A stretch of 64,000 nucleotides of DNA from an uncultured Actinomycetes bacterium (lineage in GTDB: Bacteria > Actinomycetota > Thermoleophilia > UBA2241): the NCBI GenBank assembly GCA_963767005.1, contig CAVYCN010000006.1, positions 32,001 to 96,000 on the forward strand. The letters are read 5' to 3'. The position numbers and the translations under genes are program-made. Shown here one piece after another: positions 7,780 through 40,717 of the stretch; positions within the stretch are counted from its first letter, which is position 1; the number at the start of each line of letters is the position of its first letter. The notes beneath the pieces are model-generated. The model was given only the letters and a program-made list of their open reading frames with translations. It was not told the DNA's origin and made no database searches.

Positions 7780-7819
7780 TACGCCCTCCCCCGCCCGCTG
7801 CCGGCCGCCGCGCCCATCG

Positions 7820-20865: not shown

Positions 20866-22341
20866 TCAGGGTCGCACGGCGGCCAGCTCGCCTTCGGCCT
20901 CGACGATGATCCGCCCGAGCTCGGCCGCGACCGGCGCCGGCAGCGGTGTCGGCACGTGCGTCTCGAGCAGCCGGACCGCCTCGCGCCGCGCGCGTTCGTA
21001 GACCGTCGTCGCACCGTCGGCGGCCCACTCCTCGCGGACCCGGCGATCGATCAACTGCGAGCGCGACTGGCCGCGCATGCCGCGGTAGGTGTCGTCGTGC
21101 GACAGAAAGTCGCGGAACGGCCCGACCTCGGCGATCACATCGACCGAGAGCGTCTCGTCTGAGACCGGGATCCCGGGCACGCAGAACTTGACCATGCGCG
21201 CGAACTCGGCGTCCATGACGAGCTGTGCGTAGTCGATCGTGACGCCCGATTCCAACATCCCCAGCCCGTAGATCAGGTTGGCCCCTGCCAACGCCGGCAG
21301 CAGGCTGGTGAGGGTCTTCTCGTGACCGGATTGGGCGTCGGCCACCTTGGCGTCGCCCTACGCACCGGCGACCCAGCTCGGCAGCAGGTAGAAGCGCGCC
21401 AGGCAGGCCACCCCGGCGCCGATCATGCCGCACTCGGGGCTGCCCACCGAGGCGCTCGCGAAGCGCAGGTCCATGGCCGTCGTCGAGGAGCCGTAGATGA
21501 CGGGTGCGCCGCGCGTCGTGAGCTGCGCGAGCGTGATGCCGGCCAGCACCTCGGCGTTGTGGGTGACGAGCGTGCCGGCCAGGCTGACCGGCGACGAGCC
21601 GCCGGCCATGGCCATCGACAGCACGTTGACCGGCACGCCGGCGCGCGCCCCCTCGATGATGATGTGACAGGCGTCGGCGACCAGCTTGAGCGGGCTCACC
21701 GGGCAGGTCAGGAACGAAAGCAGCGGGCGCCGGCGTAGCGCTTCGCGGCCGCCGGCGATGGCCGCCGCCATGTCGATCATCGCGCGGGCGCAGAAGCCCG
21801 TGAGCGGACCGATCGTCGCGTGCTTCGTGGTGTTCGCGAAGATCGCCTCGGCGTTGTGCAGCGGCGCGGTGTCGGGCGGCACGTCGTGGGCGCCCAGGGG
21901 CCGCTCGACGACGTCGATCTCGGGCAGCGCGTCGATGATCCTCGTGCAGTCGGCGACGTCGCACTTACGCGACTCGTGCAGCTCGCCGGTCCGCGGGTCG
22001 ACGACCTGGATGCCCTCGCCGAAGTTGGTGAAGCCGACGCGGCCGTCCTCGAGCACGACGTCGCGGGCCGGGTCGCGTCCGCAGAGCACGACCGAGGAAG
22101 GCGCCGAGCGGACCGCGTCTTCGACCAGGTGCGCCGGCAGGCGCACCACGCTCGAGTCGCGGTCGACCTCGGCGCCGGCCGCCGCGAAGATGTCGCGGGC
22201 TTCGCCGTCTTCGACGAACACGCCGGTGCGCGCCAGCACCTCGAGTGTCGCCGAGTGGATCTCGTGCAGCTCGTCGTCGGTGAAGACCTCGAGCCGAAAG
22301 CCGCCGCTCGCTCGCGCGCCGGCCCGCGGGTTGCGCCTCAT
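20866..22341 (-). CDS. mttB: Pyrrolysine-containing trimethylamine:corrinoid methyltransferase (491 aa, in-frame TAG at codon 328)
   Basis: ORFs 21358..22341 and 20866..21345 share a frame, separated only by TAG 21358-21360. Read-through gives [49 protein letters not shown], matching the Pyl context of methanogen MttB. Confidence 0.95.
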
Positions 22342-22396
22342 GGCCGCCTCACCCCTCCCCGGTCACTGGTCGTGCCGCGTCCGATCCGCGCGCGCT

Positions 22397-23803
22397 CTAG
22401 CGCACGCGGCTCGTCGGGGCCGTGCGCTCGCGGAACCGCTCGACGCAGTTGATCGGCAGGTCGAGCACCCGGGCGATGTTCACCTTGGCCTCGATCATGT
22501 TCGCCTGCGCCGGCTGGCTGATCGCGTAGCTGTGGATGCGGCCGAAGCCGTGCTCGTTGCGCACGTCGGTCATGACGACCGGGTCGGACAGGTCGAACGA
22601 CGTCACGCCGAGCCTGTCGGCCACGTACTGCTTGGCCTGCGCGAGACGCATGCCGCGGGTCATCTGCGCGCGAGCGACCAGATCTCCGGCCGCCCGCATG
22701 CCGCCCATGCCCGCCGCCTGCGCATGCGCGTTGTGCATGCCGTGCGGATCGCCCGAGCCCACCTACAAGCCGTCGAGGCGCAGCAGGTCGACGAACGACT
22801 TGGCGGCCCTGCAGACGGCGTCGCCCGGCGGATGCACGAACATCGGCACTGCGCCGACGCCCATGCCGGCGTTCATGTGCACGGGGATCGTGGCGACCGC
22901 CATGCAGGGCTTGACGATGGCGATCGCGCGCGCCACGTTCCAGGCGCAGCTCTTACCGGTGTTCACGTTGACGACCGGGCCGAACATGGTGGCGCCGGCC
23001 TGCTGGGCCAGCAGGAGCTGGTCTTTGGGCCACAGGCCGGCCAGGCGCACGCCCTCGTAGGTGAGCTCGCCGTGCATGCCGAGCACGAACTCGCCCGCCA
23101 TGCCGAGCTGCACGCCGAGGTCGGGGTACTTCTGACGGATGATCGCGGTGGCGCGCAGCGCGGCCAGGAACTCGGGGTCGCCCGAGGCGCCGGTCGTGTC
23201 CCAGTCGATCGCGTCGGCGCCGGCCTCGTACTGCGAATCGGCGAGGTGCACCATGTCGAGGACAGCCATCTCGACCGCCTCTTCTTCGGCCGCCCGCGCC
23301 TCGGCGATCTTGCCCAGCGGCAGCAGCTCGTTCCAGTTGTCGCAGGGGCCGTCCGGTTTGGAGTACAGCCCGAGGTTGGGCATCACGCCGTACTGCAGGG
23401 GCGCCACCGTGGCGAGCAGCGCGTCGTGCATGCACTGCGCCTCGTAGGCGAGGATCGTGCGCACGACCTTGAGCGAGTAGTCGCCGACGCACAGCTCGAG
23501 CAGGTCGGCGCCCATCCACTGCTCGTAGGCCTGCAGATCCTGCAGGCGCGTGGCGTGGGTCTTCATGCCGGTGCCGTCGCAGGAGAGCACGACCTCGTCG
23601 CCCACGTCGACGCCGGTGAAGCGCGCCGGCGAGGCGTAGATGTCGAGCAGGTGGTCGATCTCGTCGGCCGCCAGCGGCGCCACCTTGGCGCGTTTGGCCG
23701 CCGCCTCGGACCCCGCCTCGAGGTCGGCCCTGATCTCGTCGCGGGTCATCCGCACGAACATGCCGTCGGCCATACGCGTCGGCACCCTGGGCTCGCCGCT
23801 CAC
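22397..23803 (-). CDS. mtbB: Pyrrolysine-containing dimethylamine:corrinoid methyltransferase (468 aa, in-frame TAG at codon 347)
   Basis: GTG 23803 after GGAGGGAGG; N-terminal TRMADG. ORFs 22763.. and 22397..22762 abut across TAG 22763-22765, giving LRLDGL-O-VGSGDPHGM...GMRAAGDLVAR, the MtbB Pyl context. Confidence 0.95.
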
Positions 23804-23894
23804 CCTCGTCCTCCCTCCGCTTCGCCGCCGGCGGGCCATCCGCCACACGACCTGCGACCGCGACGGTCCACCCTGTCCGGCGACCGCGGGTCGT

Positions 23895-23950
23895 TAACCG
23901 ACCGGTCAATCAGTGCGCGCCTATCATCGCGCCGGCCGGGTCCGTGTCAA
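23895..23950 (-). promoter_or_regulatory. Promoter and TetR-type operator of mtbB-mttB
   Basis: TTGACA on - strand (23950-23945). Operator TAACCGACCGGTCAATCAG (23895-23913) is identical to 40664-40682. Confidence 0.75.
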
Positions 23951-24480
23951 GGGACATCCGCGCCGCGCGCCGGCTCGAGGCGCACGATGGCCTCGCCCTC
24001 CCACTCGAAGTTCACCTTGTCGACCCGCAGGATGTGCCAGGTCTCGGTGTCGGCGATGCCCTCGATCTTCTCGAGCTCCTCGTTCAGAAACCGGTAGAGG
24101 CCCTCGTTGTCGGGCAGGTGGGCCTCGATCAGGATGTCGAAGGAGCCTGTCGTGTAGCCCACGTATGAGACCGCCTCCATGGCCGCCAGGGCGGCCCCCA
24201 CGCCCTTGGCAAAGCCGCGGTGCACACGGATGCCGACCATGGCATCGACGGGGTAGCCGATCGCGGCCGGGTTCACGCGGGCCATGGGCAGGATCGCCCC
24301 CTGGCTGATGAGGCGCTCCACCCGGTTGCGCGCGGTCGGCTCGGACACGCCCACGGCGCGCGCGATGCTCGCATACGAACGCCGCGAGTTGGCGCGCAGC
24401 AGGCGCACGATGTGGCGGTCGAGCTCGTCGAGCTCGACGACCCCGAACGGCGCCTCGCCCGCCCTGATCACGCCGCCCAC
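23947..24480 (-). CDS. Lrp/AsnC family transcriptional regulator
   Basis: LDELDRHIVRLLRANSRRSYASIARAVGVSEPTARNRVERL; TTGSFDIL in the RAM domain. Exact start uncertain. Confidence 0.92.
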   Translation of the reverse strand: MGGVIRAGEAPFGVVELDELDRHIVRLLRANSRRSYASIARAVGVSEPTARNRVERLISQGAILPMARVNPAAIGYPVDAMVGIRVHRGFAKGVGAALAAMEAVSYVGYTTGSFDILIEAHLPDNEGLYRFLNEELEKIEGIADTETWHILRVDKVNFEWEGEAIVRLEPARGADVP

Positions 24481-24810: not shown

Positions 24811-26304
24811 GTGAAGGCGAGCACGACCTGGCTCAGCGACGCGGAGAAGAACGCCATCGCCGACCACGCCCTCGAGGTGCTCGCCACCACCGGCATGCGC
24901 TTCGCCGGCTCGCGGGTCCTGCCCCTGCTCGCCGAGCAGGGCGCCGCGGTCGACCGTGCGCGCGGCCTTGCTCGCTTGCCGCGCGAGCTCGTCGAGCGGT
25001 CGCTCGCCGCCTGCCCGCGCTCGTTCGTCATGGGCGGCGCCACGCCGGCCGACGACGTCGCGCTCGGCACCGGCGAGGCCTTTCACTTCACGCCCAGCGG
25101 CTGCGTGGCCAAGACGCTCGACCGGCAGAGCGGCCGGCGCCGCCCGAGCACGCTCCAGGACCTGCGCGACTGCACCGGCCTCATGGACGAGCTGCCCGAG
25201 ATGGACGTCATGTCGACCCAGGTCAGCGCGACCGACGTCGGCCTTGAGCGCCGCGAGCTGCTCGAGTACTTCACCATGCTCACCGAGACCACCGAGCACG
25301 TCTCGTTCATCGACTGCCCGCACGAGGTCGACGCCGTGCTGCGCCTGTGCGACGTGCTCGGCGAGGCCGCCGGCTTTGCCGAGCGGCCGCGCTTCTCCAC
25401 GGTGTGCACCATCGCCTCGCCGCTGCAGGTCGACGGCGGGGCGCTCGACGTGCACCTCGCCCTGGCGCCGCGCGGCGTGCCGGTCGAGGTCTACTCCATG
25501 ACGATCGCCGGCGCGACCTCGCCGGTCACGCTGGCCGGCACCGTCGTCCAGGCGGTGGCCGAGTTCCTCGGCGTGGCCACCGCCTTTCAGGTGGCGGCCC
25601 CCGGCGCGCGCCTCGTGTTCTGCTTCGGCTCCGGCGTGCTCGACATGGTGCGCACGACCTTCTCGCTCGGCTGCGTCGAGAGCGGCCTCATGGCAGCCAT
25701 GGCCACCGAGGTCGGCCACCACCTCGGCGTGCCCACCCTCAACCCCGCGCTGTCGACCGACGGCAAGCACCCCGGCGTGCAGGCCGGCTACGAGAAGGCG
25801 CTCAAGGCGGCCACCGTCTGCGCCGCCAACCCCGACCTCGTGTCGGGCTGGGGCCTGATCGACTCGCACAACACGATGTACCTGCCGCAGTCGGTCATCG
25901 ACAACGAGATCGCCGCCATGGTGCGGCGCCTGTGCGCGCCGGTCGACGTGAGCGAGGCCAGCCTCGCCGGCGACTCGATCGCCCGCGTCGGGCCCGGCGG
26001 CGGCTTTCTGCGCGAGAAGGACACGGCGCGGCGCATCCGCGCCGGCGAGCACTTCCTGCCGACGGTCTCGAACCGGCTCTCCTACGACCAGTGGCTCGCC
26101 GAAGGTCGTACCGAGGTCGACGCCGCCGCCGCGCGAGTCGACGAGCTGCTCGCGCGGCACCACGCGCGCGGCCCGCTGCTGCCCGCCGACCAGCTCGACG
26201 AGATCGCCGCCATCTGCCGGGCGGACCCCGGCAGCGTCCTCTGGGCGCGGCGCGAGGAGCGCCGCGACCGCCCGCGTCCCACGCCAGGAACGGAGGCACC
26301 GTGA
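24811..26304 (+). CDS. Non-pyrrolysine trimethylamine methyltransferase family (MttB superfamily, MtgB-like) protein
   Basis: IAGATSPVTLAGTVVQAVAEFL. PTLNPALSTDGKHPGVQAGYEK has Ser where the paralogue has Pyl. ARVGPGGGFL. Confidence 0.9.
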   Translation: MKASTTWLSDAEKNAIADHALEVLATTGMRFAGSRVLPLLAEQGAAVDRARGLARLPRELVERSLAACPRSFVMGGATPADDVALGTGEAFHFTPSGCVAKTLDRQSGRRRPSTLQDLRDCTGLMDELPEMDVMSTQVSATDVGLERRELLEYFTMLTETTEHVSFIDCPHEVDAVLRLCDVLGEAAGFAERPRFSTVCTIASPLQVDGGALDVHLALAPRGVPVEVYSMTIAGATSPVTLAGTVVQAVAEFLGVATAFQVAAPGARLVFCFGSGVLDMVRTTFSLGCVESGLMAAMATEVGHHLGVPTLNPALSTDGKHPGVQAGYEKALKAATVCAANPDLVSGWGLIDSHNTMYLPQSVIDNEIAAMVRRLCAPVDVSEASLAGDSIARVGPGGGFLREKDTARRIRAGEHFLPTVSNRLSYDQWLAEGRTEVDAAAARVDELLARHHARGPLLPADQLDEIAAICRADPGSVLWARREERRDRPRPTPGTEAP

Positions 26305-27221
26305 GCAGCACGATCGGCTACATCGGTCTCGGCAGTCTCGGCCGCCACCTCGCCGCCAGCCTGCTGCGGGCCGGCTTCGCGGTCACCGTCAACGACATCG
26401 ACCGCGACGCGGCCGGCCCGCTGCTCGAGGCCGGCGCGGCCTGGGCCGACTCGCCGGCAGCCGTAGCGCGCGCCGCCGGCACGGTGATCACCTGCCTGCC
26501 GTCGCCCGCCGCCGTGGCGAGCGTGGTGGCCGGCCCCGCCGGCGTCCTCGACGACCTCGCCGCCGGCGGCACCTGGATCGACATGAGCACGAACGACGCC
26601 CACGAGCTGCAGCGTCTGGCCGCCCTCGCCGCCGAGCGCGGCGTGGCCACGCTCGAGGCGCCGGTCACGGGTGGCGTGCACCGCGCCGCGGCCGGCATGA
26701 TCACCGTCCTGGTCGGCGGCGACGAGGCCGTCTATCACGCCCACCTGCCGGCCTTCGAGGCGATGGGCGGTCGCGTCTTCTACATCGGCGAGCTCGGCAA
26801 GGCATCGGTGATCAAGGTGATCACCAACATGCTGGCCTTCATCCACCTGGTGGCCGACGGCGAGGCGCTCATGCTGGCCAAGCGCGGCGGCGTCGACCTG
26901 AAGCTCGCCTGGGACGTGATCAAGGCGAGCTCGGGCAACAGCTTCGTGCACGAGACCGAGGGCCAGCTCATCCTGAGCGGCAGCTACAACATCAACTTCA
27001 CCATGGACCTCGCCCGCAAGGACCTGCACTTCGCCCTGGGCATGGGCCACGAGTTCGGCGTGCCACTCGAGCTCGCCGGCTTGACCGAGCAGATCTTCGC
27101 CCGGGCGCGGGCCACCTACGGCGGCGACGCGCAGTCGCCCATGGTCGCCAAGCTGCTCGAAGACGCGGTGGGCACCGACCTGCGCGCGCCCGGCTTTCCG
27201 GCCGAGCTGGCCCCCGAGTGA
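26301..27221 (+). CDS. NAD(P)-dependent oxidoreductase, 3-hydroxyisobutyrate dehydrogenase family
   Basis: GTG 26301 overlaps the upstream stop. IGYIGLGSLG, TCLPSP, EAPVTGG, IKVITN, FTMDLARKD. Confidence 0.9.
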   Translation: MSSTIGYIGLGSLGRHLAASLLRAGFAVTVNDIDRDAAGPLLEAGAAWADSPAAVARAAGTVITCLPSPAAVASVVAGPAGVLDDLAAGGTWIDMSTNDAHELQRLAALAAERGVATLEAPVTGGVHRAAAGMITVLVGGDEAVYHAHLPAFEAMGGRVFYIGELGKASVIKVITNMLAFIHLVADGEALMLAKRGGVDLKLAWDVIKASSGNSFVHETEGQLILSGSYNINFTMDLARKDLHFALGMGHEFGVPLELAGLTEQIFARARATYGGDAQSPMVAKLLEDAVGTDLRAPGFPAELAPE

Positions 27222-27393
27222 CGGCTCGCGGGCTCGATGCACGAAGGCCCCCTGGTGACGGCTCGCGGGTTCGTGCACAGGGGCCCGCGCAAGACGTAGA
27301 ATGTCGTCGCGGCATCCTTCGACGGCAGAAGGTTCGCCGCGAGCGCACACACGACGAATTTTCGGCACATGGCCGGCACGGAAGGAGCGCTTC

Positions 27394-28170
27394 ATGGAGA
27401 TCACCGAGTTCGCGATGGATTTCTTCTCGCTCGCGGGCAGGAACGCCATCGTGACCGGCGGCAACACCGGCCTCGGCAAGGCCTTCGCCCTGGCCCTCGC
27501 CAAGGCCGGCGCCAACGTGCTCGTGCCGAGCATCGTCGACGACGACGGCAGCACCGGAGCGCTCATCGCGGCCGCCGGCGTGCGCTACGAGTTCATGAAG
27601 GCCGACATCACCGCGCCCGGCGTGCCGGCGCGCGTCGTCGACGCCTGCGTAGAGCGTTTCGGCCGCCTCGACGTCCTGGTCAACAGCGCCGGCGTCTGCC
27701 CGCTGGCCGCCGTGCTCGACTTCGGCCGCGAGCTCTGGGACCGCACGATCGCGGTCAACCTCACCGCCGCGTTCGAGATGAGCCACGAGGCCGCGCGCCA
27801 CATGGTGCCCCAGCGCAGCGGCAAGATCATCAACGTCTGCTCGGTCTTCACCTTTTTGGGCGGGCAGTGGTCGCCGGCCTACGCGGCCTCCAAGCACGGC
27901 ATCGCCGGCCTCACCAAGGCCTACTGCGACGAGCTCGCCCAGTACAACGTGCAGGTCAACGGGCTCGCCCCCGGGTACTACGCGACCGAGATCACCCGCC
28001 AGACGCGCAGCGACCCGGTGACCAACCAGCGAGTGCTCGACCACATCGCGACCGCACGCTGGGGCGACCCGGCCGACCTCATGGGCACCGTCGTGTTCCT
28101 CGCCAGCCGCGCGTCCGACTACGTGAACGGCCACGTGCTGCTGGTGGATGGCGGCTACCTCGTCCGCTAG
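27394..28170 (+). CDS. ygcW: SDR oxidoreductase, YgcW-like
   Basis: MDFFSLAGRNAIVTGGNTGLG, GGQWSPAYAASKH, NQRVLDHI, VDGGYLVR; recognised as close to E. coli YgcW. Confidence 0.85.
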   Translation: MEITEFAMDFFSLAGRNAIVTGGNTGLGKAFALALAKAGANVLVPSIVDDDGSTGALIAAAGVRYEFMKADITAPGVPARVVDACVERFGRLDVLVNSAGVCPLAAVLDFGRELWDRTIAVNLTAAFEMSHEAARHMVPQRSGKIINVCSVFTFLGGQWSPAYAASKHGIAGLTKAYCDELAQYNVQVNGLAPGYYATEITRQTRSDPVTNQRVLDHIATARWGDPADLMGTVVFLASRASDYVNGHVLLVDGGYLVR

Positions 28171-28181
28171 GCTGGAACGCG

Positions 28182-29621
28182 ATGGCAGGCACCAAGTACC
28201 TGGTCGGCGTCGACGGGGGCTCGCAGAGCTCCAAGGTCGTCGTCTTCGACATCGGCGGAACAGTGGTCTGCGAGGGCCGTCGCGGGCTGCAGCCCATGAG
28301 CCGGCCGCGCAACGGCATCGTCGAGCACCCCGACGACGACCTGTGGGACTCGATCTGTGCCGCCAGCCGCGAGGCCATGGCGGCCTTCCCCGGCGATCCG
28401 GCCGACATCGTCGGCATCGGCCTCTGCACGATCCGTTGCGAGCGTGCCTTCCTGAAAGCCGACGGCACGCTCGCTGCGCCGGGCATGAGCTGGATGGACG
28501 AGCGCGCCTACCAGCCCTGGACCTATCCGGTGCCGGGCACCGCCTGGGTGACGACCTCGTCGGGCTACATCACGCACCGCTTCACGGGGCGCTTCCGCGA
28601 CACGGCCGCCAACAACATCGAGATCCAGTGGCCGATCGACAGCGACACCTGGCAGTGGAGCGACGACCCGGCCGTGCTCGACGCCTGGCAGATCCCGCGC
28701 GAGATGCTGGTGGAGCTGCAGCTCCCCGGCGAGGTGGCCGGCTACGTCACCCCCGCGGCGGCCGCCGCGAGCGGCCTGCCGGCCGGCGTACCGGTCGTGC
28801 AGACGGCCAACGACAAGGCGGTCGAGGCGCTCGGCGCGGGCTCGCTCGACGACCGCACCGCACTGGTGTCGCTCGGCACCTACATCGCGGCCATGCTGCA
28901 CGGCAGCGAGAACCGCAAGACGCCGACCGAGTTCTGGACGAACTTCGCCTGCGTGCCGCACCGCTACCTCTACGAGAGCCACGGCATCCGCCGCGGCATG
29001 TGGACGCTCTCGTGGTTCCTCGACCTGCTCGGCGACGAGCTCGCCCGGGCGGCCGTCGCCGAGGGCGTGTCGCGCGAGGAGTACCTGGAGCGTGAGGCGC
29101 GCGCGGTGCCGCCCGGCAGCGACGGCCTGATGACCGTGCTCGACTGGCTCGCGCCCGCGGACCACCCCTTCCGCAAGGGCGTCATGCTGGGCTTCGACGC
29201 GCGCCACACGCGGGGGCACGTCTACCGTTCCATCCTCGAGGCCATCGCCGTGACCATGAAGAACCGGGTCGACGCGATGTGCGCCGAGCTCGGCGTCACG
29301 CTCGAGTCGATCGTCGTGTCGGGCGGCGGCTCGAGCAGCCCGCTCTTCATGCAGATCTTCGCCGACGTGTTCGGCATCCCGGCGGCGCGCACGGTCGGCG
29401 CCTCGGGCGCGAGCCTCGGGGCGGCCGTTTGCGCGGCCGTGGCGACCGGTGTCCACCCCGACTTCGGCACGGCCGCCGCCGCGATGAGCGGCGCGCGCGA
29501 GTCGTTCGCGCCGCGCGCCGACGCCACGGCCGTCTACCGCGCCCTGAACGACGCCGTCTACCGCGACATCCGGACGGCCACCGACCCGCTGCTCGAGCGG
29601 TCGTACCCCATCTTCCACTGA
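28182..29621 (+). CDS. ygcE: FGGY carbohydrate kinase, YgcE-like
   Basis: GVDGGSQSSKV, EHPDDDLW, DKAVEALGAG, SLGTYIA, GLMTVLDWL. Confidence 0.85.
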   Translation: MAGTKYLVGVDGGSQSSKVVVFDIGGTVVCEGRRGLQPMSRPRNGIVEHPDDDLWDSICAASREAMAAFPGDPADIVGIGLCTIRCERAFLKADGTLAAPGMSWMDERAYQPWTYPVPGTAWVTTSSGYITHRFTGRFRDTAANNIEIQWPIDSDTWQWSDDPAVLDAWQIPREMLVELQLPGEVAGYVTPAAAAASGLPAGVPVVQTANDKAVEALGAGSLDDRTALVSLGTYIAAMLHGSENRKTPTEFWTNFACVPHRYLYESHGIRRGMWTLSWFLDLLGDELARAAVAEGVSREEYLEREARAVPPGSDGLMTVLDWLAPADHPFRKGVMLGFDARHTRGHVYRSILEAIAVTMKNRVDAMCAELGVTLESIVVSGGGSSSPLFMQIFADVFGIPAARTVGASGASLGAAVCAAVATGVHPDFGTAAAAMSGARESFAPRADATAVYRALNDAVYRDIRTATDPLLERSYPIFH

Positions 29622-29655
29622 CCAGATCCAGCCCCGAGCCACGGAAGGATCCATC

Positions 29656-31098
29656 ATGCAGCTGAGCCGAGAAGCGATCGTCGAGGGCCTGCAGCGCATC
29701 GTCGGCGCCTCCGACGTGGTCACCGACGCGGCCGTCCTCGCCGAGAGCAGCGTCGACAACTTCCGTAAGCTCGAGAACATCTTCGGCGTGCACACCATGC
29801 CACAGCCAGCGGCCGTGGTCATGGTGCGCAGCACGGAGCAGGTCGCCGCCGTGCTGGCCTTCGCCGACGAGCACGGCGTGAACGTCGTGCCGCGCACCGG
29901 CCACACGGCCACCGAGGGCGGCCTCGAGACACCCGTGCCCGACTCGATCGTGCTCGACGGCTCGCCGATGAACCGCATCATCGACATCGACACCTACAAC
30001 ATGCAGGCGACCTGCCAGTGCGGCGTGCCGCTGCAGGCCCTCGAGGACCGCGCCCGCGAGCTCGGCCTGACGACCGGCCACTCGCCCCAGTCCAAGCCGG
30101 TCGCCCACCTCGGCGGCCTCACGGCGACGCGCAGCATCGGCCAGTTCTCGACCCTCTACGGCGGCATCGAGGACATGGTCGTGGGCGTCGAGGCGGTGTT
30201 CCCCGGCGGCCGCGTGGCGCGCATCAAGAACGTGCCGCGACGCGCGGCCGGCCCCGACATCCGCCACATCGTGATCGGCAACGAGGGCGCCCTCTGCTTC
30301 ATCACCGAGGTGACGGTCAAGCTCTTCCCCTACTTCCCGCAGAACAACAGCTTCCTGGGGTACACGCATCGCGGCATGAAGGTCGGCTTCGAGGCGCTGC
30401 GCGAGGTCATGGTCGGCGGCTACAAGCCGTCGGTCGCGCGCATCTACGACCCCGGCGACGCCGACCTGCACTTCTCGCACTTCATCGCGCCCGGCGACTG
30501 CGTGCTGCTGTTCATGGCCGAGGGACCGGCCGGCATCGCGCAGGCCACGGTCGAGGGCATCGAGGCGATCGTCGCCCGTCACCCCGAGTGTCACCAGGTC
30601 GACGGCCGCTACATCGAGACCTGGTTCAACGACCTCTGCTGGGGGCCCGACAAGATCGCCGCCGAGGACGAGCGCATCAGGCAGACACGCAACGTCAACC
30701 GCACGACCGAGATCTCGGCCAACTGGAGCGCGATCAACGACATCTACGAGGCCGCCATCGGCCGCATCACGAACGAGATCCCCGACCTGACGAGGCTCGG
30801 CGGCCACTCGTCGCACAGCTACATCAACGGCACCAACATGTACTTCAACTACTTCTACAACCTGGTCGACTGTGGCCCCGAGGACGAGCCCACCAGGTAC
30901 TACCTGCCGATCATCAGGATCATCTGCGAGGAGACGCTGCGCTGCGGCGGCTCGATCGTGCATCACCACGGCATCGGCAAGGCACGCGTGCCGTGGGTGA
31001 AAGACGAGTACGGCTCGTCGTACTTCATGCTCGAGACGCTCAAGCGGGGGTTCGACCCGCACGGCATCATGAACAAGGGCACGATCCTGCCGGCATAG
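29656..31098 (+). CDS. ygcU: FAD-binding oxidoreductase, YgcU / alkyl-DHAP-synthase-like
   Basis: GHSPQSKP, TRSIGQFSTLYGGIED, KNVPRRAAGPDIRH, GGHSSHSY, HHHGIGK. Confidence 0.88.
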   Translation: MQLSREAIVEGLQRIVGASDVVTDAAVLAESSVDNFRKLENIFGVHTMPQPAAVVMVRSTEQVAAVLAFADEHGVNVVPRTGHTATEGGLETPVPDSIVLDGSPMNRIIDIDTYNMQATCQCGVPLQALEDRARELGLTTGHSPQSKPVAHLGGLTATRSIGQFSTLYGGIEDMVVGVEAVFPGGRVARIKNVPRRAAGPDIRHIVIGNEGALCFITEVTVKLFPYFPQNNSFLGYTHRGMKVGFEALREVMVGGYKPSVARIYDPGDADLHFSHFIAPGDCVLLFMAEGPAGIAQATVEGIEAIVARHPECHQVDGRYIETWFNDLCWGPDKIAAEDERIRQTRNVNRTTEISANWSAINDIYEAAIGRITNEIPDLTRLGGHSSHSYINGTNMYFNYFYNLVDCGPEDEPTRYYLPIIRIICEETLRCGGSIVHHHGIGKARVPWVKDEYGSSYFMLETLKRGFDPHGIMNKGTILPA

Positions 31099-31121
31099 AG
31101 CGCGACGCGAGGACGAACGTC

Positions 31122-31961
31122 GTGAGCGAGCTGCGCATCCTGGTGGCGTTCAAGGTGACGCCCGACTTCGAGGCGCTGCGCGACGCCGAGTGGGCCGCCC
31201 TGGCGGCCGGCGCCGGCGACACGCGGTTCGTCAGGCGCGTGCTCAACTGCTTCGACGAGAGCGCCCTCGAGCTGGCGCTGCGGCTGCGCCGCGACCTCGC
31301 GGCCGCCGGCGTCAGCGCCACCCTGGCCGCGCTGTCGGTCGGCGGCCGCGAGGTCGACCCCTTCCTCGCCACGCTACGGGCGCTCGGCTACGAACGCACG
31401 GCGCGGGTCGAACCCGGGCCGCACGCGGCCGCCCTCGACTTCGCGCCGGGCGCCGTGGCGGCGCTGATCGCCGCCTACGCCCGGCGCGTCGCGCGCAGCG
31501 ACCTCGTCGTGCTCGGCAGCCGCAGCGGACCCGGCGACGGCGGCACGGTGCCCTTCCGCGTCGCCGAGGCGCTCGGCCTGCCCTGCCTGGCCCAGGTCAC
31601 CGAGCTCGCGGCCCTGACAGACGGCCGGGTGCGCGTCGCGCGCGCGGCCGACGACGGCCTGCTGCGGCTCACCCTGAACGGCCCCTGCGTGCTCGGCGTG
31701 GGCAACGCCGTGGTCTCGTGCCTGAGCGCGCCGACCCTGAAGGAGCGCCTCGCCCACCACGACGAGCCGCCCGAGGTGCTGAGCGATGCCGAGCTCGGCG
31801 TCGACCTCGACGCCGAGCTCGGGCGCGCCGGCGTGGCGCTGACCGGCCTCGAGACGATCGACCGCTCGCGCGCCGGTGCGCTCGTCGGCGGCGCGACGCC
31901 GGCTGACGCGGCGCGCCGCCTCTACGACGGCTGGCTGCGCCCTCTGCTGGAGAAGTCGTGA
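31122..31961 (+). CDS. Electron transfer flavoprotein beta subunit (FixA/YgcR-like)
   Basis: ILVAFKVTPD, NCFDESALELAL, LVVLGSRSGPGDGGTVPFRVAEALGLP. Confidence 0.85.
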   Translation: MSELRILVAFKVTPDFEALRDAEWAALAAGAGDTRFVRRVLNCFDESALELALRLRRDLAAAGVSATLAALSVGGREVDPFLATLRALGYERTARVEPGPHAAALDFAPGAVAALIAAYARRVARSDLVVLGSRSGPGDGGTVPFRVAEALGLPCLAQVTELAALTDGRVRVARAADDGLLRLTLNGPCVLGVGNAVVSCLSAPTLKERLAHHDEPPEVLSDAELGVDLDAELGRAGVALTGLETIDRSRAGALVGGATPADAARRLYDGWLRPLLEKS

Positions 31962-32004
31962 GCGGGCGCCACGACCGGCGACTCGGCACTCGTGCGGAGA
32001 AGCC

Positions 32005-33101
32005 GTGAGCGGCACCGCGCTGCGCTTCGTCGCCCTGCTCGACGGCACGACCGCCGGCGCTGCCGGTCAGGCGCGCGCCCTGGGCGCCTTCATCGACGGC
32101 CTGTCGACGACCGCCGCGACGGTCTCGGGCGAGACCGTCGTCTTCTGCGCCGACCCGGTCGCCGGCCGCGAGCTCGCCGACCTCGCACCGACCAGCGACG
32201 TGCGGCTCGTCGCGACGCCGGCCCGCCGACCCGAGCTCATGGTCGAGCGCCTGCTCGCGTCCGGCGCCGCCGGCGCCGACCTCTACCTGGCCGGGCCGGG
32301 CTCGACCGGCGCCGAGCTCGCCACGCGCCTCGCCTGCCGTGCCGGCGGCGGCGCCTTGACGGGCGTCGTCGACCTCCGCCTTGCCGGCGAGACGGCGCGC
32401 TGCCACGCCGCCGTGTGCTCCGGCCACCTGACCGGAAGCTTCGACCTCACGCGGCGACCCTGGTGTCTGAGCCTCGACGCCGCCTGGGCCGACGAGCGGC
32501 CCGCAGCACCTGCCGAGCACCGCGTGCTGTCCGGCGGCCCGGACGGGGTCGCAGCCGGCGAGTCGAGCGACGCCGCGCCGGCGGCGGCGCGGAGCGCGGC
32601 CGCCTCTCTCGGCGACGAAGGTCCGCTCGTTGAGCCCTTCGCCGACGTCGAGCTCGTCGCGCCGGCGGCGGCCAGCGACCTCGCGGGAGCCCGCTTTCTC
32701 GTAGTCGCCGGCTACGGCGCCGGCCGCGACGGCGTCGCCCGCCTGGCCGCCGCGGCGCGCCGCATGGGGGCGGCCTTCGGCGTGAGCCGCCCGGTCGCGA
32801 TGAACGCCTGGGCGCCGCTCGACCGACTGGTCGGCGCCTCGGGAGCACGCAGCGCGCCGCTCGTGTGCGTCGTGGCGGCCGCCTCGGGCGCACCGGCGCT
32901 GTACTGGGGGATCGAACGGGCCGGCTTCGTCGCGGCGGTCAACTCAGACGAGCATGCCCCCATCGCGCGCAAGGCCGACGCCGTCGTGGTCGACGACGCC
33001 GTCGCCGTGGTCGAGGCCCTCGCCGAGATCGTGGAGTCGCAGCCGCGCGGCGCTAGCGCGCCGCCCGCCGGCGGTCCGCGCCCGCAATCCGTTCGCTCGG
33101 G

Positions 33102-33105
<4 letters not shown>
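32005..33105 (+). CDS. Electron transfer flavoprotein alpha subunit (FixB/YgcQ-like)
   Basis: GTG 32005 after GGAG. LVVAGYG, FGVSRPVAMNAW, VGASG, ASGAPA, AVNSDEHAPI. Confidence 0.85.
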
Positions 33106-35269
<2,164 letters not shown>

Positions 35270-35273
<4 letters not shown>

Positions 35274-36166
35274 TTCGAGAAGGCGGTCCGCACGCCGTCC
35301 GCGATGAGGTTGATGGCGATGACAAGCGACGCCAGCGCCAGGGCCGGGAACAGCACGACCCAGGGCGAGCTCTGCAGGACGCCGCGCTCGGTGGCCACGA
35401 CGAGGCCCCAGTCGGACGACGGCGGCTCGAGGCCGAAGCCGAGGAACGAGAGCGTCGCCACCGTGAACACGGCGTAGCCGAGGCGCACGGTGCCCTCGAC
35501 GACGATCGGCTGCGTGATGTTGGGCAGGATCTCGCGCGCCATGACGAAGGCCGAGCGCTCGCCGCGCAGACGGGCCGCCATGACGTACTCGCGCTCGCGC
35601 TCGCCGATCACCGCCGAGCGGATGGTACGCGACACGACCGGCGTGAAGAGCGCGCCGATCACAAGGATGAGGATGGCGTACGACCGGCCCAGCAGCGAGA
35701 TCACGAGGATCGACGTGATGATGATCGGCAGCGCCAAGAAGGCGTCGACCACGCGCATGATGATGTCGTCGGTGAGGCCCCGGTAGAATCCGGCGACGAG
35801 GCCGACGATCCCGCCCCAGAGCAGGCACAGGACGGTGGCCAGCGGCGCGATGATGAGCACGCTGCGGGCGCCGGCCATGGTGCGGGCGAACACGTCGCGG
35901 CCGAGGTCGTCGGTGCCGAACCAGTGGCCGCCGCCGGGCGAGGCCAGGATCGCGCCGGTCGGCGTGGTCGGACTCTGCGTCACGTGGGTCGAGAAGATCG
36001 CCATGAAGACCCAGAAGCCGACGATGACGAGACCGACCAGGAACGTCGGACTGCGAAACAGGGTCCGCAGGACGTAGCGCCGCTGGCGGCGCTGCTCGGC
36101 CGCGGCGGCCGCGTTGGCCTGCGTCTCGAGCGCACCCCGGTCTGGTGTCGTGCCGGTCGTCGCCAC
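35270..36166 (-). CDS. ABC transporter permease (DppC-like)
   Basis: HWFGTDDLGRDVF, EYVMAARLRG, ILPN. Confidence 0.92.
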
Positions 36167-36167
36167 G

Positions 36168-37118
36168 TCAGGTCGACTTGCGGATACGCGGGTTGAGCAG
36201 GGCCACGACGATGTCGGCGGTCAGGTTGGCGGCCATGTAGATCAGAGCGATCACGAGCACGCAGGCCTCGAGCAGCGGCTGGTCGTGAAAGAGGGCGGCG
36301 TTGACCGTGTAGTTGCCGATGCCCGGGTAGTTGAACAGCGTCTCGATCACGACGAGGCCGCCGATCAGCCAGCCGATCTGGCTGCCGATCACGGTGACGG
36401 TCGGCACCATCGCGTTGCGCAGCACGTGGCTGAACACGACACGTGCGCGCGGCATGCCCTTCAGCGTGGCCGTGCGGATGTAGGGCTGGTCGAGGACCTG
36501 GGCGGTGCCGGCCCGTGCCATGCGCGCGATGTAGCCGAGCTCGACGAGCATGAGCGGGATGGCCGGCAGGATCAGGTAGTAGAAACGGTCGATGAACGGA
36601 CCCGGCGTCTGGGGCATCGCGTAGGACGGCAGCCAGCTCAGGACCACCGAGAAGATCACGATGAGGATGACGCCGCTCACGAACTCGGGCATGACCGTCA
36701 TCGACAGCGAGAAGATCGTGATCGCCCGGTCGAGCGGGCTGTCGCGGTGCAGCCCGGCGAACACGCCCAAAGCGATCGAGGTGGGCACGATGATGATCAG
36801 CGCGAAGCCGCCGAGCAGTAGCGAGTTGCCGAGCGAGTGCCAGACGATCGAGGTGACCGACAGGTTGGTGTACTGCAGCGAGTTGCCGAGGTGGCCGGTC
36901 AGGAAGTGACCGGCCCACTCGAAGTAGCGCACGTAGATGGGCCGGTCGACGCCCAGCTTGTGGTCGAGCGCCTTGACGGCCGATTGAGTGGCGTAGGGAC
37001 CCAGGCGGACCCGGCCGATGTCGCCGGGCAGCACCTCGGACAAAGCGAACACGAGGATCGACACCAGCACCAGCGTCGGCAGCATGAGCAGCAGCCGGCG
37101 CGCGATGTATCGTGCCAT
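36168..37118 (-). CDS. ABC transporter permease (DppB-like)
   Basis: YIARRLLL, YIRTATLKG, HVLRNA, IETLFNYPGIG. Confidence 0.92.
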   Translation of the reverse strand: MARYIARRLLLMLPTLVLVSILVFALSEVLPGDIGRVRLGPYATQSAVKALDHKLGVDRPIYVRYFEWAGHFLTGHLGNSLQYTNLSVTSIVWHSLGNSLLLGGFALIIIVPTSIALGVFAGLHRDSPLDRAITIFSLSMTVMPEFVSGVILIVIFSVVLSWLPSYAMPQTPGPFIDRFYYLILPAIPLMLVELGYIARMARAGTAQVLDQPYIRTATLKGMPRARVVFSHVLRNAMVPTVTVIGSQIGWLIGGLVVIETLFNYPGIGNYTVNAALFHDQPLLEACVLVIALIYMAANLTADIVVALLNPRIRKST

Positions 37119-37165
37119 ACCCGGGTCCCTACGCCTTTCTCAGCAAGAGACGGTGAAGCTCAGGG

Positions 37166-38845
37166 TCACTTCGTTACGTACGCCTGCGCGGCGTTGAAGT
37201 AGAACGAGCCGGGGCCCTGGACGCCGTAGACGTTCTTCCACTGCGTGCGCAGCTGCGAGATGAAGAACGCGACCAGGATCGGCGTCTCGTCCTGCTGGAT
37301 CGACGACAGCTTGGTGGCCAGCGTCGTGCGGGTGGCCTCGTCGGTGGTCGACTCGTACTGGTTGAACGCAGTGACGAAGTCGGGGTTGTTCCAGTGCGAC
37401 GAGCTCCAGGCGCTGGTCGGCAGGAGCATGGCCTGCGCGTAGACGCCCGGGGTGGGCCGGCTGCCCCACTCGACGATGACCATCGGCGCGTTCAGCCACG
37501 GCGTGGTGCTGTTGCTGCCGGAGTAGATCGCGTTGTAGCTGATCTCGTTGATCTTGACGTTGATGCCGGCCGGCTTGCACTGCGCCTGGATGAGCTGCGC
37601 GTAGGCCGGGTTCTCGAGGTAGTTGGCGACGGTCAGCGTGACGTCGAGGCCGTTCGGATGACCGGCCGCCGACAGCAGCGACTTGGCCTTGGCGATGTTG
37701 ACGTTGCGCACCGCCGGGGTCGGGCTGCCCGGGAAGATCGTCGGCTCCCAGAAGGTGTCGTAGCCGAGGTTGCTGCGGCCGCCGTAGAGCGCCTTGTTGA
37801 TGGCGTTGCGGTCGAGGCACCAGGCGACGGCCTGGCGGATGCGCTTGTCCTGCCACGGCGTCTTGTTGACGTTGAAGGCGACCTCGCGGATACCGCTCGA
37901 CGGGTAGACGTCGACGCGCAGGTTGGTGTCGCTCAGGACCGACTGGCCGCCCTGGAAGACGGTCTGCGGCTGCACGTCGACGGCGTGGGACTGCAGCTGC
38001 AGGTTGGCCGCCGAGGCGTCGGTGACGAGGATGAAGTCGAGCTCGTCGAGGTACGGGAGCTGGCGGCCCTGGGCGTCCTTGCCCCAGTAGGACGGGTTCT
38101 TGACCATCGTGACGCGCTGGTTGGTCACGAAGCTCTTGATCATCCACGGGCCGGTGCCGACGGCCTTCTTCTGGAAGTTGCCGTCGTAGTTGCGCGGCAG
38201 GATGGCCGTGTTGTACGACGACGAGCTCACCAGGTACGGGAAGTCGGCGAAGGGCTTTTCGAGGTTGAACTGCACCGTGTGCGTGTCGACCGCCTTGGTG
38301 CCGCCCGGCGAGAGGATGCCGGCGAGGGCGGCGAGAGCGCCCGAACCGCTCTTGGGATTGATGACCCGCTCGATGCTCGCCACGACGTCGGCGGCCTCGA
38401 AGGGGCTGCCGTCGTTGAACGTGACGCCCTGGCGCAGGTCGAACGTCCAGACGTCGCCCTTCTGGTTGGGCGTCCACTTGACGGCCAGCTTGGGCACGAG
38501 GGCGTTGGTGTTGCTCAGGTCGATCAGGTACTCGGCGACCTGATAGACGAGCACGATGCCGCCCTGGTCGTAGATGGTGACCGGGTCGAGCGTCTTGAGC
38601 GGCGGCGGGATGATGGCCTTGAGGGTGCCGCCGGTGACGACCGCAGGCGCCGAGGCGCTCGCCGATGGCGTCGTGGCGGTGCTGCCGCCGGAGCTGCCGC
38701 AGGCGGCCAGGAGCTGGCCGACGACCGTGGCCGAAAGGCCGAACACCGACGCGCGCACCAAGAGCTGGCGCCGCGTCATCTTCCCCGTGAGCACCTGCTC
38801 GACGAGGTGCTGCCCGTATTCGCGTGCGTACTGCTCATCCGTCAT
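37166..38845 (-). CDS. ABC substrate-binding protein family 5, Tat-exported lipoprotein
   Basis: ATG 38845. TRRQLL twin-arginine motif, LAAC lipobox, WTFDLRQGVTFNDG, GTGPW. Confidence 0.9.
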   Translation of the reverse strand: MTDEQYAREYGQHLVEQVLTGKMTRRQLLVRASVFGLSATVVGQLLAACGSSGGSTATTPSASASAPAVVTGGTLKAIIPPPLKTLDPVTIYDQGGIVLVYQVAEYLIDLSNTNALVPKLAVKWTPNQKGDVWTFDLRQGVTFNDGSPFEAADVVASIERVINPKSGSGALAALAGILSPGGTKAVDTHTVQFNLEKPFADFPYLVSSSSYNTAILPRNYDGNFQKKAVGTGPWMIKSFVTNQRVTMVKNPSYWGKDAQGRQLPYLDELDFILVTDASAANLQLQSHAVDVQPQTVFQGGQSVLSDTNLRVDVYPSSGIREVAFNVNKTPWQDKRIRQAVAWCLDRNAINKALYGGRSNLGYDTFWEPTIFPGSPTPAVRNVNIAKAKSLLSAAGHPNGLDVTLTVANYLENPAYAQLIQAQCKPAGINVKINEISYNAIYSGSNSTTPWLNAPMVIVEWGSRPTPGVYAQAMLLPTSAWSSSHWNNPDFVTAFNQYESTTDEATRTTLATKLSSIQQDETPILVAFFISQLRTQWKNVYGVQGPGSFYFNAAQAYVTK

Positions 38846-39118
38846 GGCGTCACTCCCCCTGATACTGGACCCTTCCACACACTTGCGACGGGGCGAGAGC
38901 CACGGGCCGGCCGTGCCCCGATCAGTCTCCGCCACCATACACAGCGGCCTGCCTTCATGCAATACGAATCAACCACTCGATTAGCGGCGAGACGCCTGTA
39001 AGAGAATCATTGTTCGGCAAACCCCCGTCGGGACCGGCGATTCGCTTGCTTCACCGCGGCCCTGCCAACAGATGTGCGCTCGTCGAGTGCCGGTCACGGC
39101 TCCCCCGCCGCGCTGAGC

Positions 39119-40477
39119 TCACGCGCCGAGCCACACGCCCTGCCGACCAAGCTCCGCCTGCACGCGGCAGACGTCGACGGCGCTGGTGCCGCCGCCGCTC
39201 AGCGACACGGCGGCGGCGACCCCGGCGGCCTGGCCGGTCACCGCGCAGCACATCTGGTTGCGGGTCGCGGCGTGCGCGACGCGGTCGCCGGCGACGCAGC
39301 GCCCCGCGACCAGCAGGTTCTCGACACCCTCGGGCACGAGCACGCCGTAGGGCACCTGAAAGTAGCGGCCGGTCGTCGGCAGCACGAGCAGGCCGTAGCC
39401 GTCGATGAACTCGGGAAACACGCCGACCGCGTCGGCGAAGCGCGCCTCGCCCCGCACGTCGTTGCCGGTCAGCTCGTAACGCCCGACGATCTTGCGCGAG
39501 TCGCGCACGCCCAGGGTCATGCCGAAGGCACGCAGCCGGGCGCGCTCGAACCCGGGCGTGAAGCGGCGCAGGGCCTCGATTGCCAGCAGCGCCCGGCGCC
39601 GCCCCTCGATCTCGGCACGCGTCAGGTCGCGCACGTCGGTCGCGTCGTAGCCGCCCATCACCACGAGGTTGAGCGAGCTCACCTCGCCGTCGTCGCTGAC
39701 GTGGCCCCAGGTGCCGCCGATGCCCTGCACGTCGGTGGGGATCACACCGGCCTTGCGCGCCAGGTCGAAGGGCTCCTGCAGATAGGGGCTGAAGAGGTCG
39801 TCCTCTTTGCCGGTCGTCTCGACGTGCCAGCCGCTCGTCCAGTCGCCGTAGGTGGGAGCGACGATCGCCACATGATCGAGGAACCGGCGCTTGTCGACGC
39901 CCGAGCACGAGAACATCACGGTGACGCCGAGCGACTCGCCGGGCGCGATCGTGCGGCAGGGCGCGCCGGCGCGGCAGGCCAGGTCGGCGTCGCCGGTCGC
40001 GTCGATCACCCGTGCGGCGAGCACGGCCTGACGCCCCGACTTGCTCTCGGTGATGACTCCCCTGACGCGGCCGCCCTCGACGAGCGGCTCGACGGCGAGG
40101 CAGTGCAGCAACGGCTCGACCCCCGCCTCTTCGACGACGCGGTCGGCCACCACCTTGAAGAGCTCGGGGTCGAGCGCCTGGCTGCACGACTGCGCGTCGG
40201 GCGTCGTGGCGCCCATCTCCGCGGCGCGTCGCTCGAGCTCGACACCGATGCCGCGCAGGTCGACCGTGCCCTCGTGGCGGTACCAGGCGATCGTGTCGAC
40301 GCCGACCTGGGTGATCACGCCCCCCAGGCAGCCGTAGCGCTCGAGCAGCGTGGTGTGGGCGCCGGCGCGGGCGGCGGCCAGGGCGGCCGCCAGGCCGCCC
40401 GGGCCGCCGCCCACCACCAGGACCTCGGTCTCGCACAGGACGGGCGTACGACGAGCCGCCTCACGCACGTGACTCAC
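39119..40477 (-). CDS. FAD-dependent oxidoreductase (FAD_oxidored family)
   Basis: EVLVVGGGPGG, ERYGCLGG, IDATGDAD, GVRDSR, ENLLVAGRC. Start GTG 40477 inferred. Confidence 0.88.
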   Translation of the reverse strand: MSHVREAARRTPVLCETEVLVVGGGPGGLAAALAAARAGAHTTLLERYGCLGGVITQVGVDTIAWYRHEGTVDLRGIGVELERRAAEMGATTPDAQSCSQALDPELFKVVADRVVEEAGVEPLLHCLAVEPLVEGGRVRGVITESKSGRQAVLAARVIDATGDADLACRAGAPCRTIAPGESLGVTVMFSCSGVDKRRFLDHVAIVAPTYGDWTSGWHVETTGKEDDLFSPYLQEPFDLARKAGVIPTDVQGIGGTWGHVSDDGEVSSLNLVVMGGYDATDVRDLTRAEIEGRRRALLAIEALRRFTPGFERARLRAFGMTLGVRDSRKIVGRYELTGNDVRGEARFADAVGVFPEFIDGYGLLVLPTTGRYFQVPYGVLVPEGVENLLVAGRCVAGDRVAHAATRNQMCCAVTGQAAGVAAAVSLSGGGTSAVDVCRVQAELGRQGVWLGA

Positions 40478-40631
40478 GCGTTCACCGTCCAATAGAGCGT
40501 GGCGTATGGACCCATTCCCAGCCTCCAGACGGCGCTGTGGCGGCGCCGATCCGCCACGTTCGCGCGAGCGGCCGAAGCCTCGGTGGCACCGGTCCGCTGC
40601 CGTCGGCGAACGGTCGCAGCGGCCCTTCGCC

Positions 40632-40717
40632 GATTGACCGGTCTGGTAGGATGGCCCCCTGGCTAACCGACCGGTCAATCAGCCAGCCATTCCACCGCAG
40701 CGCGGAAGGAGTGTCAA
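40632..40717. promoter_or_regulatory. Two operator copies plus a minus-strand promoter between the FAD oxidoreductase and tetR
   Basis: GATTGACCGGTCTGGTA (40632-40648, inverted copy), TAACCGACCGGTCAATCAG (40664-40682), and TTGACA on - strand (40717-40712). Confidence 0.75.

Follow-up and report, generated by a model that had tools for sequence, protein, structure and literature searches.

The 64,000-nucleotide (nt) stretch of an uncultured actinobacterial genome analysed here (the window) possesses two adjacent, co-oriented genes, mtbB and mttB, of the dimethylamine (DMA) and trimethylamine (TMA) methyltransferase families, each of which contains one in-frame TAG codon. The locus raises the question of whether these codons are translated as pyrrolysine (Pyl), and how they might be told apart from the TAG stops that end 892 of the 2780 genes of the genome (32%, as counted with a crude gene caller). 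Both genes and both codons lie where a preliminary description of the window had put them, and its proposal that the TAGs are recoded as pyrrolysine is supported by the pyl gene set, by conservation and by selection, as far as sequence can tell. On the whole, it is probable that the genes are intact, that their TAGs are read as Pyl, likely with the help of the codon directly 5' (the -1 codon) and of a downstream hairpin, and that the enzymes transfer the N-methyl groups of tertiary and secondary amines, in the simplest case those of TMA and DMA, to a corrinoid protein. The Pyl genes themselves are a known trait which is already in print (PMC10805028, PMC9630628), while the hairpin and codon context are the result added here.

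In-frame TAG codons of mtbB and mttB

The window mttB, when read through, scored 722.8 bits against the TIGR02369 equivalog cut-off of 525 and belongs to that family. It could be aligned with Methanosarcina barkeri MttB (PDB 7XCM/7XCL; 421 bits to 7XCM) over residues 3-483, and the TAG falls on Pyl334 in this alignment. The canonical site is kept, with G108, M243, Y358 and G366 corresponding to M. barkeri Gly110, Met249, Tyr364 and Gly372, while Glu, which is frequent there in bacterial-type MttB, occupies the position of Thr111. In the M. barkeri enzyme, the amine is bound by Pyl, and turnover depends on Tyr364, whose change to Phe lowered activity (PMC9842639). As a separate observation, there are Pyl-MttBs in genomes G013 and G019 that carry Phe at the Tyr364 position.

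The gene mtbB starts with GTG at 23803, preceded by GGAGG, and scored 407.3 bits against the TIGR02368 cut-off of 369.1 when read through, which places it in that family. Its Pyl context, LDGL-O-VGSGD, fits a UAG within the DG.O.G.GD motif. A second TAG (22397-22399) ends the gene and is a true stop, because TGA stands at that place in six of the seven orthologues printed; mtbB uses UAG both ways, as Pyl codon and as stop.

The TAG is kept in 10/10 orthologous loci, for mtbB and for mttB alike. Within the genome, all eight MtbB genes carry one TAG each, at a shared alignment column, and one alignment column is likewise TAG in 7 of 35 MttB-family genes (41 matches, of which six fragments were left out). 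Pooled ratios of nonsynonymous to synonymous substitution (dN/dS) upstream and downstream of the TAG were 0.206 and 0.192 for mttB, and 0.176 and 0.218 for mtbB, values that are non-independent, since each orthologue was compared pairwise with the window genes. Nearly all of the 120 best database matches listed are 326-327 amino acids (aa) long, i.e., relatives cut at the TAG, and standard annotation fragments such Pyl genes. A reading of the genes as pseudogenes, with TAGs that arose by nonsense mutation or assembly error, deserves practically no credence and was rejected: sequencing reads of the same strain were not found (best word share 0.19) and some relatives' assemblies contain frameshifts, but the TAG occupies one column throughout 16 paralogues and every full-length family homologue listed, selection is purifying 3' of it, and the genome has a full pyl set. 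Contigs from RNA runs of two studies cover both genes; they cannot show transcription and were not used for expression or habitat.

Because the genes are intact and conserved, the codon stands at the catalytic position and the whole Pyl machinery is encoded, the TAGs of mtbB and mttB are almost certainly read through as pyrrolysine. It counts against this judgement that pyl genes alone have been regarded as no proof of function (PMC12626013).

Pyrrolysine machinery, paralogues and distribution

The partner genes, which had been expected to lie outside the window, are located on contig C3 of the same genome (G000; 19 contigs, rated 100% complete with 4.87% contamination), where tRNA-Pyl(CUA), pylSc, pylSn, pylB, pylC and pylD make up the gene set of a bacterial Pyl system. 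PylSc, PylSn, PylB and PylD are above their profile cut-offs, and PylC, of whose 432 residues 351 were scanned, reached 202 bits, below the cut-off of 248. The selenocysteine (Sec) genes SelA and tRNA-Sec are present as well. As to the arrangement of these genes, pylSc overlaps a cell-wall amidase gene (C3:234984-236911 for the locus) and is located behind it in 12/12 family loci checked, apart from pylT/B/C/D, and pylSc and pylC themselves terminate in TAG. The genome also has second copies of pylB and pylD (C4:545111-554336), each above its cut-off, located beside a Pyl-mttB, a corrinoid gene, two permeases and a non-Pyl MttB, with an 85-aa open reading frame in the possible place of pylC. 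Two near-identical stretches (C6:10900-28623 and C9:924-22125) are consistent with the contamination rating.

The genome carries 16 Pyl methyltransferases with TAG, namely eight MtbB, seven MttB and one of four MtmB matches. A genome-wide read-through screen, together with five TAG stops followed by a 6-bp hairpin, yielded no convincing further Pyl protein. A TGA in an MttB match of contig C10 lies upstream of the gene start and is not an in-frame recoding, and the C10 row of the MttB tree carries a mistaken PYL label. The sole Pyl-mtmB (C3:78297-82497) is preceded by an ornithine carbamoyltransferase gene and one resembling dimethylarginase, likely a module leading from methylarginine to methylamine.

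Besides this genome, 43 of 46 members of the family have PylSc, compared with 7/44 in a second family, none of 160 genomes from ten further families of the class, and 1/400 genomes drawn across the phylum. Taken alone, the genes plainly exemplify a trait already known, and show it to be family-wide in an uncultured anaerobic actinobacterial family. The family genomes without PylSc are G020, G041 and G127, two of them small (1.7-1.8 Mb) and nearly closed, which offers a natural loss control. In G021, a PylSc match (C9:10153-10875) has one in-frame TAG, possibly an error of an assembly rich in frameshifts. The 11 closest relatives by PylSc bear the labels Actinomycetes, Actinomycetota or Thermoleophilia, in agreement with the actinobacterium-like character first ascribed to the genome. 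PylSc is 84% identical to a bog_752 record, the genus Bog-752 belonging to Thermoleophilia; UBA2241, and we infer that the genome has the same placement.

Hairpin and codon context of the pyrrolysine codons

Each of the 16 Pyl UAGs is followed by a hairpin, whose loop is AGGN at +72 in mttB (6-bp stem), AGAY at +78 in mtbB and AGGN at +114 in mtmB. Under a rule that combines an AG(A/G)N loop, a C-G or G-C closing pair, a stem of at least 5 base pairs (bp) and a position of +61 to +125 nt, the hairpin was present at 16/16 Pyl UAGs, versus 15/892 TAG, 33/1806 TGA and 2/131 TAA stops, and in 4/216 upstream windows of the same genes, which served as a control. Its chance under protein-preserving synonymous resampling was 0.001 for mttB and 0.0165 for mtbB (window), and 0.0005 for mtmB. 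A conserved structure 3' of recoded codons that is scarce at true stops is the pattern by which selenocysteine insertion sequences (SECIS) and pyrrolysine insertion sequences (PYLIS) are recognised.

The A of the loop comes from rare codons, with GCA in 57/57 mttB (2.8% of Ala codons in the genome) and GGA in 33/33 mtbB (3.5% of Gly codons), while non-Pyl MttB homologues have GCA at the matching Ala in 0/15. The rarest codons bunch at -2 to +44 around the TAG in 58 mttB and 33 mtbB of the family. Two-sided changes, counted by cells, amounted to 28 versus 8.7 in shuffled alignments of 92 mttB and to 29 versus 12.1 for 30 mtbB, and none of 500 shuffles was as high in cells or in score for either gene; kinship may inflate these compensatory-change counts.

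In a second order (f4), the hairpin is present in 23/23 mtbB and 5/5 mttB, 3 of these 28 having already been in the defining set. Among the full mtmB of the second-order set, seven of nine have an AGGN loop at +114 with a stem of at least 6 bp, and eight have A at codon +38. One extra high-GC mtbB from beyond the Thermoleophilia set fits the pattern, and in metagenome mttB (at least 121 sequences, without taxonomy) the Ala codon at +24 is GCA in 99/115 among the matches listed; the spread of the hairpin outside Thermoleophilia was judged from mttB alone. Methanosarcina-like mttB do not have the pattern, and a primer for M. barkeri mttB has GCC at the corresponding Ala (PMC9842639).

The -1 codon is also distinctive. 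Where Leu precedes a Pyl TAG, it is encoded by TTG or TTA in 12/12 cases versus 1/65 before true TAG stops, and by TTA in 23/23 cases in the second order, while the window mttB has Ala (GCG) rather than Leu at this place. The hairpin and the -1 codon form a candidate bacterial Pyl insertion signal, which would tip decoding towards Pyl-tRNA and away from release factor 1 via a bound factor or slowed termination, and the free-standing PylSn is one candidate reader of it. Read-through extensions have a median of 66 codons past TAG stops versus 53 past TGA stops. Because the former are not shorter, unselective read-through would be costly, and compensation via shorter tails was rejected. Nor was TAG depletion seen in Pyl-positive kin, in small samples (31/89 in Pyl-positive G024, 16/98 in Pyl-negative G020, 11/70 in G030 and 22/69 in G036).

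On the sequence patterns above, the odds that the hairpin acts on UAG decoding itself appear evenly balanced. More tentatively still, Pyl-using bacteria may mark their UAGs with a dedicated, factor-read signal, consisting of a U-U-purine or GCG-type codon 5' and an AG(A/G)N hairpin 70-115 nt 3', which evolved in three unrelated families while a third of genes kept UAG as stop. This would be the bacterial PYLIS predicted in 2007, when such an insertion element was expected and no common structure was found (PMC1976440); no common structure was reported for mttB later either, in the part of that source covered (PMC3639795).

Several points weigh against such a signal. The hairpin rule was set after inspecting these sequences, and the 16 Pyl genes represent three unrelated families sharing ancestry within each, not 16 independent events. 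The number of pairs with two-sided change stayed within the shuffles (102/500 for mttB, 151/500 for mtbB). Two of the nine second-order mtmB are without a clean hairpin, and six of the seven positives are closed by U-G, outside the strict rule. An AG loop with a stem of at least 5 bp occurs in 77/121 metagenome mttB, and it is scarcer at low GC (7/23 under 50% GC), both among the matches listed. As well, the mttB hairpin has no more than ordinary stability (z -0.68), and free energy reveals no excess structure versus synonymous shuffles in the 60 nt directly past the UAG (mean z +0.27, 16 genes), the hairpin being located further out. The three distances of the loop depart from the fixed, short one of bacterial SECIS, and Pyl insertion in archaea has been said to require no element (PMC13663744).

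A possible though less favoured explanation is that the hairpins act on the mRNA and not on decoding, where they would shield or mark the stretch left bare after a UAG stop (Rho, RNases) or bind a regulator, and that Pyl insertion comes simply from tRNA-Pyl competing with release factor 1, with more of it on induction of pylBCD. The distance of the hairpin, which varies and is beyond the ribosome footprint, its lack in Methanosarcina-like mttB, and the preference of archaeal papers for supply and demand (PMC12626013, PMC13663744) are all consistent with this explanation, whereas the -1 codon bias points to the decoding step and read-through tails behind TAG are no shorter than those behind TGA. 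The hairpin and the -1 codon make it testable, by a handful of synonymous substitutions, how UAG-stop-rich bacteria insert Pyl only where needed. If the signal does act on decoding, it would overturn the no-element view, allow Pyl genes to be predicted, and provide a tool for context-dependent amber suppression.

Corrinoid partners and fate of the methyl group

The corrinoid proteins, RamA-type activator and methyl-acceptor transferase, which the preliminary description had sought outside the window, were found elsewhere in the genome. There are 16 corrinoid-cap (PF02607) hits for corrinoid proteins, some of them duplicated between contigs C6 and C9, one RACo-type activator and one methyl-tetrahydrofolate (methyl-THF):corrinoid methyltransferase (301 bits versus a cut-off of 259), which together constitute a corrinoid methyltransferase system and would act in trans from other contigs. 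Following M. barkeri MttB, Pyl would bind the amine and activate its methyl for transfer to Co(I)-corrinoid, and demethylation of amines is the very probable function of both MttB and MtbB. The single RACo activator (C4:101443-118903) is accompanied by a lysine 2,3-aminomutase, a beta-keto acid cleavage enzyme, three EamA transporters and several non-Pyl MttBs, a possible methyl-lysine route.

Of the Wood-Ljungdahl or methyl-THF genes that had been thought worth seeking, the methyl-THF genes are present: hdrA-mvhD-metV-metF-hdrC-hdrB, folD, a cyclohydrolase gene and fhs, along with a NiFe hydrogenase and a formate dehydrogenase gene that an in-frame TGA interrupts. No Wood-Ljungdahl acetate route was found. 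Acetyl-CoA synthase has no PF03598 hit in the genome, unlike in 12 of 24 family genomes, and a corrinoid Fe-S protein was not found, the only CdhD (PF03599) hit in the genome being an HgcA-like gene. Because acetyl-CoA synthase was not found, the genome would have no acetate route and is probably not that of an acetogen. Methyl-THF would instead run in reverse through HdrABC-MvhD-MetVF, FolD, cyclohydrolase and Fhs, being oxidised to formate, and formate would be turned into CO2 and H2 by the selenocysteine formate dehydrogenase and the hydrogenase.

The HgcA-like gene (C4:456974-458418) is located with a ferredoxin whose sequence terminates in CDC, within an arsC-acr3-arsR operon, and these are likely mercury methylation genes; its VWCAAGK is presumably the HgcA motif. 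A stand-alone CooS-like gene (C12:165676-167565) is found with a CRP-type regulator and a ferredoxin.

Promoter, operator and 16-gene cluster

The features of the locus are collected in Table 1. The TTGACA of the mtbB promoter is kept in register in 6/8 orthologues, and the palindrome next to it in 6/7 congeners. Only two strong copies of this operator-like site exist genome-wide, one before mtbB and one before tetR; a genome-wide operator regulon was rejected, the strong sites being confined to the window. Conserved palindromes at the promoters of tetR itself and of its targets are the hallmark of a TetR-operator regulon, and the TetR protein likely reads these operators.

Table 1. Features of the mtbB-mttB locus and its neighbourhood (window positions)
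Feature	Position	Strand	Details
mttB, Pyl-type trimethylamine methyltransferase family	20866..22341	-	491 aa, Pyl328; TIGR02369 profile
Hairpin 3' of mttB Pyl codon	21277..21292	-	6-bp stem, AGGG loop from +72
In-frame TAG (Pyl codon) of mttB	21358..21360	-	codon 328; GGT GCG directly 5'
mtbB, Pyl-type dimethylamine methyltransferase family	22397..23803	-	468 aa, Pyl347; TIGR02368 profile
Hairpin 3' of mtbB Pyl codon	22669..22698	-	13-bp stem, AGAU loop from +78; stability z -4.22
In-frame TAG (Pyl codon) of mtbB	22763..22765	-	codon 347; rare Leu codon TTG directly 5'
Palindromic operator-like site just 3' of mtbB promoter	23893..23914	.	33.3 bits, best control 16.3
Sigma-70-like promoter of mtbB-mttB	23923..23950	-	TTGACA-16-GATGAT; 1 found, 0.2 expected
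Lrp/AsnC-family regulator	23947..24480	-	profile match
Non-Pyl MttB-superfamily methyltransferase, first gene of divergent operon	24811..26304	+	Ser at Pyl column; 313 bits, below 525
Beta-hydroxyacid dehydrogenase, short-chain dehydrogenase, FGGY kinase, FAD (flavin adenine dinucleotide)-linked oxidase, EtfB, EtfA	26301..33105	+	syntenic in congeners
Opp/Nik-family ATP-binding cassette (ABC) importer: fused ATPase, two permeases, family-5 binding protein	33102..38845	-	syntenic in congeners
Weaker operator-like site 5' of ABC binding protein	38964..38985	.	19.1 bits
PF12831 FAD-dependent oxidoreductase	39119..40468	-	profile match
Two operator-like sites between oxidoreductase and tetR	40629..40683	.	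31.3, 14.3 bits; kept in 3/5 congeners with region
TetR-family regulator	40826..41623	+	PF00440 37.6 bits; weak BetI-type C-terminus, PF13977 26.8 bits, cut-off 27

The 16 genes from mttB to tetR have the same order in congeners G011, G007, G003 and G002, and in G001 without the Lrp match, while in G004 and G005 synteny is cut off by the ends of the compared stretch. Other genera have only pieces of the cluster (five stretches in four genomes). As a repressor, TetR would couple mtbB-mttB to the ABC importer, and because of this link the pair is likely to act downstream of an imported N-methylated compound. Such a compound is also suggested by the non-Pyl MttB, dehydrogenases, kinase, Etf and Opp-type importer; searches of the PDB and the Atlas named no substrate for the binding protein, the oxidoreductase or the kinase.

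Elsewhere in the window (6385-13610 and 47289-49718, both on the minus strand), NfnAB-like and HydABC/NuoEFG-like flavoprotein genes are present, with two Nfn-type copies.

Substrates of the enzymes

From sequence, we lean slightly towards free TMA and DMA as the main substrates. The less likely course is a three-step stripping of a larger quaternary amine, in which the ABC importer takes up R-N(CH3)3+, the non-Pyl MttB takes off one methyl, Pyl-MttB then demethylates R-N(CH3)2 and the diverged Pyl-MtbB R-NH-CH3, and the carbon skeleton goes to the dehydrogenases and kinase. In that case, the main substrates would be other than free TMA and DMA. A non-Pyl MttB lies within 4 kb at all four genome loci that pair Pyl mtbB and mttB (about two independent origins by tree), as would suit such stripping, although methyltransferases cluster anyway, sharing partners. 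The non-Pyl MttBs of E. limosum halt after one methyl, but stepwise demethylation by non-Pyl enzymes has been proposed for DCMF, which counts against it (PMC9768040, PMC12155760). In favour of stripping, neither CutC nor GrdB, which would release TMA, was found in G000 or 11 congeners, these being the only TMA-releasing enzymes searched. Moreover, Pyl mtmB is single in the genome and occurs in 2/46 other family genomes and 0/11 congeners, one operator joins the pair to the Opp-type importer and to a TetR with a weak BetI-type end, and a sister locus on contig C18 has, in addition, genes for a hydrolase and a class III aminotransferase.

The active sites bear on both courses. Gly110, invariant in 66 sequences, is replaced in 33 of 58 family Pyl-MttBs (17 Ser, 15 Asp, 1 Cys; 11 short matches dropped), these variants being paralogues of the window MttB, which would be in keeping with stripping. 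However, Gly110Ser is also found in mid-GC lineages, and the window MttB keeps the canonical site and has the top TIGR02369 score among the seven Pyl-MttBs of the genome. Free DMA as a substrate is made less secure by the window MtbB itself, which belongs to a diverged subfamily with an 11-residue deletion; no solved MtbB structure was found in the PDB from which to read its pocket. An AlphaFold model of MtbB built from 8 alignment rows had a pLDDT (predicted local distance difference test) of 62, too low to be informative.

Comparison with known systems

Like M. barkeri MttB and MtbB (PDB 7XCL/7XCM/7XCN; PMC9842639), the window genes have Pyl at the same column, the four site residues, family scores over the cut-off, and mtbB adjacent to mttB. 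Unlike in M. barkeri, Thr111 is replaced by Glu, MtbB is of a diverged subfamily, no corrinoid gene is present at the locus, the acceptor transferase is of the THF type and not the coenzyme M type, PylSn and PylSc are split, and a hairpin follows the codon. TAG accounts for about 32% of stops here, versus 1-27% (median 5%) in Pyl-positive archaea (PMC12626013).

Pyl-using Deltaproteobacteria and Firmicutes share with this genome many Pyl methyltransferases, the use of both Sec and Pyl, UAG as a common stop and a reverse methyl branch. The Olavius delta1 symbiont has eight Pyl methyltransferases (PMC1976440), up to five TMA methyltransferases have been reported in Pyl-using bacteria (PMC8318568), and 'Ca. 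Formimonas warabiya' DCMF has at least seven Pyl-MttB, for which new roles were hinted at (PMC9768040). Unlike them, the present genome has 16 Pyl genes, and no acetyl-CoA synthase was found in it. A common RNA structure was not found or reported in the studies of those bacteria.

Closely similar genes come from Stordalen Mire, where metagenome-assembled genomes (MAGs) of Actinobacteriota express Pyl-coding mttB and mtbB; Bog-752 is among the most active genera there, the genus of the Pyl genes being unstated in the part of the source covered (PMC10805028). In addition, PylSc of a Thermoleophilia bacterium is listed in the supplement of PMC9630628. These MAGs and this PylSc are of the same class and very likely of the same family as the present genome. 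The parts of PMC10805028 and PMC9630628 covered contain no operon anatomy, family-wide or paralogue count, operator or recoding signal.

No earlier report of the AG(A/G)N hairpin was found in a literature search that missed most subscription papers and bioRxiv supplements. The PYLIS models of Rfam (RF02509, RF02510; PMC3639795) match the 100 nt from each window TAG. Like PYLIS and bacterial SECIS, the hairpin is a stem-loop that follows a recoded stop within the coding sequence. Unlike them, it is short, has a fixed AG(A/G)N loop, is shared by three unrelated families, and is located at +72 to +114 nt instead of directly behind the codon.

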